From a virus: DNA of 64,000 nucleotides. The DNA lies in the UHGV virus genome UHGV-0090252. One strand, 5' to 3'. Under the pieces are notes generated by a model. The model was not told the origin of the DNA. It did not search any database and saw only the letters and a program-made list of their open reading frames with translations. A program made the translations under genes and the position numbers. This document shows positions 17,813 to 20,704 of this stretch, in pieces; positions within the stretch are counted from its first letter, which is position 1; the number at the start of each line of letters is the position of its first letter.

Positions 17813-18251
17813 AGAAGTAGTGCAAAGAGCAATGCTTGACAATTCTACTAAAGATGAGATGTACACAGAAATTTGTGATAAGTTGAATTGCTCAAGACAT
17901 GCTGCTAAGGTTCTCGTACATTGTTTTATCTGGGAATGCTCAGAACGATACATGGAGCATATGCTTAAGAAAGAGATGGGTGTACAGGAGCCTATTGTCA
18001 AGAAGCATCCTTTACTTACTGGTTGGCAGTATGATATAAGAGAAGTTGAGACAGGTCTTTTAGTAGGTAATGGTACAGTCGGTACAATCTTTAGTGATGG
18101 CTCTTATACAATCTTGCTGAAGAATCCTACTAAGGAGTTTGCAAGACTCGACATGTATCTGTTTAAGGTTGCTGAAGATGACTTTATATATTCTCCAGAG
18201 AATGCTTATAAACCAATTTTCAGGGTCTGTAGAGAGGAAGGTGCAAAGTGA
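17802..18251 (+). CDS. hypothetical protein (149 aa)
   Basis: ORF overlapping upstream gene end. Confidence 0.5.
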   Translation: MKIKEVVQRAMLDNSTKDEMYTEICDKLNCSRHAAKVLVHCFIWECSERYMEHMLKKEMGVQEPIVKKHPLLTGWQYDIREVETGLLVGNGTVGTIFSDGSYTILLKNPTKEFARLDMYLFKVAEDDFIYSPENAYKPIFRVCREEGAK

Positions 18252-18820
18252 TTAAAAGAGACTTGAGAGTTATGGAAAAGGGTGATGTAAAAGAAGTTGA
18301 AGGTAACTACCTAGTACTTGACTGGAGTGATGTTCGAGAAGCATTATCCAAAGAAAGCCTTGACATACTAGAGCAGCTTGTCTTCTCAGTACGGCATATC
18401 AGAGAAGTTAAGAATGGTAAAGAGCCATTAGAAGGAATCTTTGTAGAGAAGTCTTATCCGTTCTATGAAGACACTTTACAGAAAGTTAAGATGTACTTTA
18501 AACAGAAGAACCGTAAAGTGGTCACTATGACATCTCTTGGTGGACAGAATATGTCTATTATGGAAGATATCAACCCTAAGAGACCGAGCAAAGGTGTCTG
18601 TATAAAAATCACAGGGCATGAAGAGTATATCTCAGTGGATGATTTTAGTGTGTTCTGTAATGGTTCTGCTGTCTTTAATGGGTTTCACTATGATATCCGA
18701 GTGTACCCAATCAAGGGAGATGCTGTTATGATGCAGATATTCGATAACAACAATGGATTCACTCATTTTTATCAGACAACCAAGTCATCACTGAAGACAG
18801 TTCTGGAAACACTGATTTAA
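18248..18820 (+). CDS. hypothetical protein (190 aa)
   Basis: last gene of the plus-strand module, followed by terminator. Confidence 0.5.
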   Translation: MIKRDLRVMEKGDVKEVEGNYLVLDWSDVREALSKESLDILEQLVFSVRHIREVKNGKEPLEGIFVEKSYPFYEDTLQKVKMYFKQKNRKVVTMTSLGGQNMSIMEDINPKRPSKGVCIKITGHEEYISVDDFSVFCNGSAVFNGFHYDIRVYPIKGDAVMMQIFDNNNGFTHFYQTTKSSLKTVLETLI

Positions 18821-18831
18821 AATATCTTAAG

Positions 18832-18856
18832 AGCCTCCTTAATTGGGGGCTTTTTA
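18832..18856 (+). terminator. rho-independent terminator
   Basis: GCCTCC-TTAATTG-GGGGGC hairpin followed by TTTTT. Confidence 0.6.
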
Positions 18857-18859
18857 TTT

Positions 18860-20390
18860 TTTATAAAATTTTATCGGTTGTACCAACCTCTGGGTCACCA
18901 TCATATGTGAATAAAATATCTATCCTTCTTAACAGCCTTCTTAATCTTACTCTCTATATAGTTATATAGTACTATATAGTATCTTAGTAACTATCTAGTG
19001 GTCTTAATAGCCCTCTGTATAACCCTTCTAACAAGCCCTCTAACAAGCCTTCTAAACAACCTATACAATCACCTTAACCATCTCTCTATACTCTCTTAGA
19101 AGCTCCCATACACCTCTTAATCTCTAGGTTAGCTATGACACTCTCTATAGGTGTTCACTAGGTATTACTAAGCCTCTATATAGACTGTTTTAACAAACTT
19201 AACAGGAATATCTTCACAGACCTTATCTCACAAGGTCTAACACGGTACTAACAAGGTATCTTATAAGCCTGTTTCCACCTGTATTTTTAAAAGACTGTAT
19301 AGGTAATTATTCAGAATTTTAAAATTTTTATAAAATAGGACTATCAAGTCATTTTTTTAGGGTCTTTGAAGGAACTGAAAAATATCTGTAGAAGATGTAT
19401 ATCTGCTTGGTAGCCCTTAACAGCTCCCTTACAAGTACTTTGCAGAATTTTAAAATATCATTAACAGTTTCTTAACAGTTCTCACATCTTCTTAACAACT
19501 CTTCAAAGGTCTTAACAGTTTCTTAACAGAACTAACAAGGGTTTAACAGTTTTCTAGGGATTGGTAACAATACCAATTAACAAGTGCTGAATAGGCTTTA
19601 CAGAGGCTTAACAGATGACTAACAAGAGCTAACAAGTTAATTTTTAAGAGTTATTTTGTTAAGATAATTAACAAGTCCCTAACAAGTGTTTAATCTTTTT
19701 AACAAGCTATTAACATGGTCACTACTCTTTTCTTATCGTTCCCTTTCCTTTCTTAGTGACTTCTTAAACATACCTCTTAAAAGCTCTTAAAAGCTCTTTA
19801 TAGGCTCTTTTAAGTCCCTCCCTAGTATTTACCCCTCAACTGTATGGATAGCTCTTTATAGGGCTTTACAGGAGCTTTTAAGGCTATGCCAAAGGTTCTT
19901 ACAAGGTTTTTACGTGGTCTTAACAGAGATTTAACAAGGTGCTAACAAGAATAACTATGTAGGGTTTGTTAAGAAAATGTTAAAAAAATGTTAAGGGGGC
20001 TAGCATTTACGTAACTTTTAAGCTACTTCAAAGTAACTTTATAACCCCTATAACATACTTTTTAATAGCTATCAAGGGGTTTGTTTAATCATTCACAAGA
20101 TACTAGCCAGCCTATAAGCTTTCACCCTTATAAGGTTCTTTTAAGGCTCTCAGAAGCTTTATAAAGGGCTTTTTAGGGTGGGTTAATATGATTGCTTAAG
20201 TTAGGGTGATAAGGCTGTTATAGGGCGTTATAGAGCGTTTAAGGGGTTGCCCTTCCCTTTCGGGTTATGGGCTTATATTTAAGTTGATTTGATAAGAGGT
20301 TATAGAGTAGACTATAGAGTTATTGCTTTTTAAGGTCTAGTAAGATTCTGGAAAGGAAAGGGAAAGGGTTTGTATAAGGATTCGATAGAC
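18860..20390. repeat. 1.5 kb repeat-rich non-coding region between convergent transcription units
   Basis: no ORF of 60 aa or more on either strand; dense short repeats (TATATAG/CTCTATA at 18940-19200; more than 20 copies of YTAACAR at 19400-19960; CTCTTAAAAGCTC and TTATAGRG families to 20330). Confidence 0.7.
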
Positions 20391-20392
20391 GT

Positions 20393-20417
20393 AAAAAAGC
20401 CCCTTTGAGTAGGGGCT
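20393..20417 (-). terminator. rho-independent terminator ending the small-gene array
   Basis: hairpin AGCCCC-loop-GGGGCT with AAAAAA on plus strand to the left (U-tract on the minus-strand transcript). Confidence 0.65.
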
Positions 20418-20455: not shown

Positions 20456-20704
20456 TTAGTTAGTGCCTTCTTTGTCGTAGTACAGGGAGACAATTTTTTC
20501 ACCCCAATAGTGAAAAGAATAACCCTCTTTAAGAACTTCCTGTTTTGTTTCCTCCCAGAACTCATTAGAAGGATTATAGTCGCTGATGGTCTGACTGATA
20601 AGACCTTTCACCATTTCAAAGGCGTTATCAGTGCCTGCAATGTCAAATTTAACATCCAGAGAGTAAAAACCAAATTCGTTAACAGTAGCGCGGATAGTTG
20701 CCAT
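20456..20704 (-). CDS. hypothetical small protein (82 aa)
   Basis: ATG directly preceded by conserved type A cassette with AGGAGA RBS. Confidence 0.55.
   Translation of the reverse strand: MATIRATVNEFGFYSLDVKFDIAGTDNAFEMVKGLISQTISDYNPSNEFWEETKQEVLKEGYSFHYWGEKIVSLYYDKEGTN

Follow-up and report, generated by a model that had tools for sequence, protein, structure and literature searches.

The stretch of DNA analysed here (64,000 nucleotides of the virus genome UHGV-0090252, hereafter the window) contains, at positions 18860-20390, a region that is dense in short repeats, and this raises the question of what the region is for. The preliminary description, made from the letters and a list of reading frames, offered three answers: a replication origin, a partition site, or the termini of a linear genome that carries terminal repeats. 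It also reported that no ORF of 60 aa or more was present, which is borne out even at a lower threshold: ORFs of at least 40 aa are absent from both strands between 18820 and 20434. Seven ORFs of 25-34 aa do lie in the region, of which six are disrupted in the majority of relatives. The sole small ORF intact in all relatives, a 26-aa frame at 19395-19475, spans the left cut site described below, so that constraint at the DNA level suffices to explain its conservation. With no other small ORF conserved, hidden small genes were rejected as an explanation of the region. The same description placed the region between convergent transcription units, with terminators on both sides, and in this it was correct. 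The gene blocks to the left and right both read toward 18860-20390, and each is closed by its own hairpin (Table 1).

The source genome is that of a Felixounavirus, a Felix O1-like myophage. Matches to the region come from 257 phage records, with identities of about 76-97%. Almost all of these are from Felixounavirus or related genera (some Mooglevirus and Suspvirus), the best matches being Tribble and Alf5 at about 96.5%; over the whole region, identity to other Felixounavirus records is 87-97%. As expected of a Felix O1-like myophage, portal and large terminase genes are found at 249-3348 and a block of 25 tRNA genes is present in the window. In Felix O1 itself, the orthologous region lies between ORF23 and ORF24. 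The large terminases of Felix O1-like phages form a terminal-repeat-type group of their own, according to the study of UAB_Phi87 (PMC4837284). No small terminase was recognised by PHROGs or Pfam, and the matches of the 66-aa ORF at 3355-3555, immediately upstream of the terminase gene, and of the two genes flanking the region are confined to families of unknown function. In the Felix O1 genome paper, ‘short terminal repeats’ are given as an inference from pulsed-field sizing (PMC3185647); neither that paper nor the one on the wV8 genome describes the region, and the PhageMaP essentiality paper on the Felixounavirus Bas63 reports no data for this intergenic stretch.

The evidence that bears most directly on the question comes from relatives whose physical ends have been mapped. 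For three phages, terminal repeats were obtained by running PhageTerm on sequencing reads: Pr103Blw (MW481326; PMC8303462), with a 581-bp repeat annotated as ‘short direct terminal repeat region’; I14.1 (PP892526; PMC11737134), with a 581-bp exact duplication at its ends; and Ro111lw (MH571750; PMC6454146), with a 613-bp repeat. The repeats of the first two correspond to window positions 19409-20000, and that of Ro111lw has the same left boundary as the window. Both boundary sequences, at 19408/19409 and 20000/20001, are identical in the three phages and the window, and the last base of each of the three records aligns to window position 19409. The shared boundaries of these three PhageTerm-based records, which come from two laboratories, point to fixed and unique end positions, within the error of a few bases that is possible in PhageTerm boundaries.

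The ends of UAB_Phi87 were mapped in a different way. Time-limited Bal31 digestion combined with SpeI cleavage and run-off sequencing gave a terminal repeat of 608 bp, the Bal31-sensitive terminal SpeI fragments being of 4322 and 2819 bp (PMC4837284). When the boundary motifs are applied to this genome they predict a repeat of 614 bp and terminal SpeI fragments of 4431 and 2751 bp. It is exactly this locus that lies between the two SpeI sites of UAB_Phi87. The published and predicted fragment sizes differ by about 70-110 bp, but the locus is the same nonetheless. Furthermore, the published sizes are inconsistent with the 608 bp of the same paper (PMC4837284), and the genome length given there differs by 66 bp from that of the deposited record.

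Many other GenBank records start or stop inside the region. Probes of 200 nt across each boundary found a second copy in about 26 records, and several more records open there. MET-P1-301, whose 544-bp end duplication is offset by about 20 bp, counts against the reading given below. The left-boundary 23-mer is also found in 26 viral contigs, each with a single internal copy and hence uninformative on ends. For Erwinia phage Fifi106, from a more distant genus, the stored record starts away from the terminus, with 910 bp of coding-like sequence at its beginning.

Because the ends of relatives map to its boundaries, the YTAACAR array of the window can be read as the body of a terminal repeat of about 592 bp. 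The region 18860-20390 is very probably a Felixounavirus concatemer junction, with 19409-20000 as the short exact direct terminal repeat. The repeat is real but ordinary, of a kind already known for the genus from the mapping of UAB_Phi87, from PhageTerm and from annotation in at least one record. Thus, among the three answers first offered, the genome termini with terminal repeats are supported, and the origin and the partition site are not. The repeat is present in a single, collapsed copy because this assembly was opened elsewhere; orthology suggests that it would be duplicated at the ends of this phage, as in its relatives. In the orientation of the window the chromosome would have its first base at 19409 and its last at 20000, and both gene blocks therefore read toward the ends. 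In the virion, the left arm of the junction would adjoin the right-end copy of the repeat, and the right arm would lie just inside the left-end copy.

Table 1. Coordinates in the window of the proposed concatemer junction, its parts and associated features (a slash within a sequence marks the putative cut).
Feature	Position	Strand	Remarks
Large terminase subunit, presumed cutter of both boundaries (in trans)	1732-3348	-	phrog_979 ‘terminase large subunit’, E = 8e-234
Intrinsic terminator	18829-18854	+	10-pair stem followed by T run; closes rightward block (last gene 18248-18820)
Left unique arm of the probable concatemer junction	18860-19408		CTCTATA/TATATAG and CTAACAAG repeats; 11-12 bp periodicity
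Left boundary (cut) element GATGTATATCTGCTT/GGTAGCCCTTAACAG	19394-19423		Cut inferred at 19408/19409
Probable direct terminal repeat, 592 bp	19409-20000		Orthologous to the repeats of MW481326, PP892526 and MH571750
Forward array of 20 TAACA cores (consensus YTAACAR)	19418-19947	+	Often in pairs or triplets at 11-bp spacing
CTCTTAAAAG tandem repeat, variant unit inside the terminal repeat	19774-19798	+	2.5 perfect copies
Three inverted motif copies (TGTTAAG/A plus AAAA, period 11), adjoining the right boundary	19967-19995	-	2-5 copies in relatives
Right boundary (cut) element AATGTTAAGGGGGC/TAGCATTTACGTAAC	19986-20015		Cut inferred at 20000/20001
Right unique arm of the probable concatemer junction	20001-20390		GTTATAGRG and CTTTWWAAG-type units; purine run at about 20350-20368
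Intrinsic terminator (20417-20398)	20398-20417	-	Terminator-like hairpin; closes leftward block (last gene 20456-20704)

The left boundary shared by the three PhageTerm-mapped phages and the window reads ...TATATCTGCTT/GGTAGCCCTTAACA, and the right boundary ...AATGTTAAGGGGGC/TAGCATTTACG. The two resemble an inverted pair, with CTGCTT/GGTAGCCCTTAACA on the left and, as the reverse complement, ATGCTA/GCCCCCTTAACA on the right; the pattern TGCTW/G ... CCC ... TTAACA is common to both. Around the left cut, 25 of 26 aligned sequences share the same 26 nt (TGTATATCTGCTTGGTAGCCCTTAAC), and the remaining one has a single substitution in TTAAC. A palindrome, TTACGTAA, lies 7-14 nt outside the right cut.

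The short-repeat families that had been listed from the sequence, namely TATATAG/CTCTATA, a short tandem at 19760-19800 and TTATAGRG, are all present, and short repeats in general are far denser here than by chance. With expectations derived from the rest of the window, CTCTATA and TATATAG are found four times each (0.07 expected in each case), GTTATAG three times (0.07), CTAACAAG eight times (0.06), TAACAAG 12 times (0.21) and TTAACA 17 times (1.0). Direct reading of the sequence places copies of GTTATAGRG at about 20217, 20227 and 20299. TAACAR reaches 17 and nine copies in the region's two 500-bp bins, compared with an average of 1.06 per bin over the window. Of the 33 TAACA cores between 18800 and 20450, 28 are on the plus strand (binomial p = 7e-5); 24 of the 33 (20 forward and four reverse) fall in 19409-20000. 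The irregular tandem of more than 20 YTAACAR(G) copies in the preliminary description is thus a genuine array with a slightly generous count: strict YTAACAR copies number about 18-19, and 20 is exceeded only when variants with one mismatch are included.

A 10-12 bp repetition, unremarked in the preliminary description, runs across the whole region. Adjoining TAACA cores are very often 11 bp apart and, in 19409-20000, autocorrelation reaches z = 9.8 at lag 11, with harmonics at about 21, 31 and 42. Peaks are also seen in the arms, at lag 12 on the left (z = 5.5) and at lag 11 on the right (z = 4.7), all of them above the maximum of z = 4.2 among 60 control windows.

Conservation was assessed in an alignment of the window, as reference, with 25 relatives from three genera, scored in bins of 30 nt by identity to the window. 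Values of 0.85-0.99 are found over most of the non-coding region. The left arm lies at 0.87-0.99 over most of its length, with one 30-nt bin at 0.80, and the right arm at 0.76-0.96. The flanking coding sequence falls below the non-coding region, at about 0.8 to the left and 0.3-0.8 to the right. Within the repeat, the score is 0.947 at TAACA cores and 0.825 at other positions, the conserved footprint being YTAACA; such a difference between cores and spacers is as expected of binding sites. We found no description of the regular TTAACAR array, or of the strong conservation of the whole junction, in the literature searched.

The boundary motifs were found in 26 of 27 relatives, again from three genera, and the repeats that they delimit in these 26 are 567-658 bp long, with a median of 592. 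Each holds 18-23 forward and 2-6 reverse cores, and the forward cores persist between genera whose identity in this region is only about 77-79%. At the right cut, 11-bp units are gained and lost whole, leaving 2-5 copies among relatives, and the exact length of the array is therefore unconstrained. Specific to the window and four relatives (five of 26 sequences) is a 23-bp insertion at about 19554-19576. Given this insertion and the variable units, the array evolves by slippage of units while its cores are kept. When compared with the repeats of UAB_Phi87 (608 bp), Pr103Blw (581 bp), Ro111lw (613 bp) and I14.1 (581 bp), the repeat of the window is orthologous, with the same boundaries, neighbouring genes and length class. 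Its differences from Felixounavirus relatives, which consist of the length of 592 bp, the 23-bp insertion and the number of inverted units (three, as against 2-5), are without substance.

How such a junction might work can be proposed by analogy with phages of the T7 type. Replication would give head-to-tail concatemers that carry the repeat once at each junction. The terminase would recognise the junction and cut at two fixed sites, ...CTGCTT/GGTAGCCC... and ...AAGGGGGC/TAGCATT..., and repair synthesis would duplicate the repeat, yielding a packaged chromosome that runs from 19409 to 20000 with the repeat at both ends. The approximately 20 one-directional TTAACAR cores, about one helical turn apart, would form sites stacked on one face of the DNA, and the inverted triplet at the right cut may be part of the same proposed set. 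Their binder could be a multimeric recognition factor, such as an equivalent of the small terminase or a protein that organises DNA ends. Judged purely by its anatomy, the TTAACAR array is a plausible set of candidate binding sites, with a chance that we put a little short of even. The more ambitious idea, that the array serves as the platform on which a novel type of packaging-recognition protein loads, in a mode distinct from the known cos and pac sites, is tentative, and we consider it rather unlikely.

It may be argued that the terminal repeat and its cuts are real, and that the short repeats within are simply neutral by-products of slippage or out-of-register annealing with no role in binding. 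Whole 11-bp units are indeed gained and lost at the right cut (2-5 copies), the 23-bp insertion is seen in only five of 26 sequences, and the repeats range between 567 and 658 bp in length. Nevertheless, the cores are better conserved than the spacers (0.95 compared with 0.83), 18-23 forward cores are kept in three genera of about 77-79% identity, the strand bias is strong (p = 7e-5) and the region is better conserved than the neighbouring genes, all of which makes neutrality improbable. Less probable still, and in our view very unlikely, is an iteron-type replication origin, in which the repeats would bind a phage initiator that opens adjoining AT-rich DNA. No initiator-like gene was found to adjoin the region, the adjoining proteins being without known family. 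The physical ends of relatives at this locus already explain its conservation and its repeats, which, along with an AT-rich stretch at about 19285-19345 (within the left arm) and a GC content of 0.34 in 19001-20000, are the features that recommend an origin; it is also the case that no mapped replication origin was found for these phages in the literature. The repeat unit, with its 7-bp core, 11-bp period and variable spacers, is not the 17-22 bp iteron, and the region has one relaxed DnaA box and no cluster of them. The turns in GC skew coincide with changes of gene direction, and therefore provide no independent signal of an origin. An extra origin function in the arms could still accompany the terminal repeat.

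The long and highly conserved non-coding DNA might instead be transcribed into a functional RNA, and there are weak promoter-like matches (9 of 12 positions) in its favour. However, such matches number 10, a count that shuffled sequence also reaches (6.3 +/- 2.8), and the terminators on both sides face into the region. Rfam gives nothing within the region at E <= 1, the single match (18799-18859, E = 0.067) lying over the terminator upstream of it, and the folding z-scores of the left arm and repeat, on both strands, are only -1.65 to -0.35. In addition, virion DNA would have the region split at its ends. We accordingly give a non-coding RNA very little credence. A partition (centromere-like) site of a plasmid-like prophage is scarcely credible: clustered short repeats are all that it has in its favour, against which the phage group is strictly lytic (PMC3185647), no ParA/ParB-like genes adjoin the region, and the linear ends of relatives are fixed here.

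If the region is the concatemer junction, as we favour, the physical ends can be placed at 19409 and 20000, and the true chromosome would exceed the collapsed assembly by about 592 bp. Opening the record at 19409 and annotating the repeat is of use for genome comparison and when the phage is to be rebooted or engineered. The biological value is modest and lies in the presence of an array of about 20 sites in a phage group without an identified small terminase. The TTAACAR array offers a defined DNA bait with which its candidate binding protein could be found.

The junction may be compared with several known systems. Like the pac site of P1, in which hexamer repeats lie to either side of the terminase cut, it has clusters of a short motif around a putative cut, and these are probably recognition elements. 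The hexamers of P1 pac contain Dam GATC sites, whereas TTAACAR does not. P1 also packages by the headful mechanism, with permuted ends, whereas the relatives of the present phage have fixed ends and exact repeats; the shortening of two discrete fragments by Bal31 in UAB_Phi87 is likewise unlike P1-type headful packaging (PMC4837284). An IHF-assisted cos/pac site was considered and rejected, since no match to the IHF consensus WATCARNNNNTTR is present inside 18860-20390; the phased TTAACAR units are at best one mismatch away from it. The pho box, an example of the tandem head-to-tail sites bound by winged-helix regulators, has seven conserved bp and four spacer bp, repeated every 11 bp. The direct repeats here, with a 7-bp core, a spacer of about 4 bp and an 11-bp period, share that geometry, and the analogy extends to geometry only: the array of about 20 sites is far longer than the operators of such regulators, and no such protein was identified here.

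The junction of T7 has a repeat of 160 bp and 13 copies of CCTAAAG, all in one orientation, over the right arm, repeat and left arm, with a signal at lag 12-13. Their counterpart here is the set of 28 forward TAACA cores with its signal at lag 11. Both junctions thus combine a short exact terminal repeat in a gene-poor stretch with an A/T-rich heptamer in about 13-25 copies, nearly all of one orientation and scattered over repeat and arms at about a helical turn. The two lack sequence homology and have different motifs, so that the resemblance is one of architecture only. Should the loading-platform idea prove true, it could also point to a role for the heptamer arrays at T7 ends. The arrangement nevertheless differs in other respects. 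The repeat here is about 3.7 times longer than that of T7 and holds most of the copies, whereas the T7 copies are mostly in the left arm, and the gene blocks here read toward the ends, whereas the early promoters of T7 lie just inside its left end.

Palindromic elements lie both within the direct terminal repeat and at its right cut. The window shares the longer palindrome, a 23-bp insertion, with only four of the 25 aligned relatives. The unit that carries the shorter one occurs once in the window and twice in most relatives (sequences L014-L036); another relative carries some six tandem repeats of a longer unit that includes it. The pyrimidine run in the repeat and the purine run in the right arm, some 600 bp apart, are complementary to one another.

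The short ORF that crosses the left cut keeps an unbroken reading frame in 25 of 25 relatives, and no obvious ribosome-binding site was seen ahead of it. Constraint at the DNA level is the better explanation for its conservation. On the other side of the repeat, the gene closest to the right arm codes for a homologue of Gp23 (9.7 kDa), which was found by mass spectrometry in purified Felix O1 virions (PMC3185647). By this homology its product is predicted to be a small virion protein, encoded by a gene adjoining the chromosome end.

Sequence features of the window near the terminal repeat and elsewhere
Feature	Coordinates	Strand	Remarks
23-bp insertion	19554-19576		palindrome ATTGGTAACAATACCAAT; about two helical turns
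Perfect palindrome TTACGTAA	20004-20015		inside unit TTTACGTAACTTT; immediately outside right cut
Pyrimidine run TCCCTTTCCTTTCTT	19739-19753		within repeat
Purine run GGAAAGGAAAGGGAAAGGG	20350-20368		right arm
Third related run CCCTTCCCTTTC	20248-20258		
26-aa ORF	19395-19475	+	spans left cut site
Gene nearest right arm	20456-20704	-	82-aa acidic protein; Felix O1 ORF23 homologue
66-aa ORF	3355-3555	-	directly upstream of large terminase gene (1732-3348)
tRNA block	3778-8669	-	25 genes

Strand switches of the ORFs define two divergent transcription sites, at approximately 10300-12300 and 56100-56800, and GC minima fall at 11-12 kb (0.348) and 56-57 kb (0.345). These divergent sites are more natural places than the convergent junction in which to search for early promoters or an origin. 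The tRNA block is flanked by terminase and portal genes on one side and by an RNA-binding-protein homologue (8835-10250) on the other. Since the window contains no recognisable small terminase, the 66-aa ORF, whose product matches solely phrog_4397, a family of unknown function, is a candidate for that role.

Records or papers of two relatives contain inconsistencies. The GenBank taxonomy line of PP892526.1 (vB_EcoM_I14.1) reads Tequintavirus/Demerecviridae; its ends match the Felixounavirus region of the window at 87% and 82% identity, and its own paper describes a Felixounavirus (PMC11737134). The GenBank taxonomy is probably mislabelled. For UAB_Phi87, the SpeI interval in deposited sequence JN225449.1 is 6568 bp; the published terminal SpeI fragments of 4322 and 2819 bp (PMC4837284) would then give a repeat of some 573 bp, whereas the paper states 608 bp. 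The genome length likewise differs, being 87,669 bp in the paper but 87,603 bp in the record.
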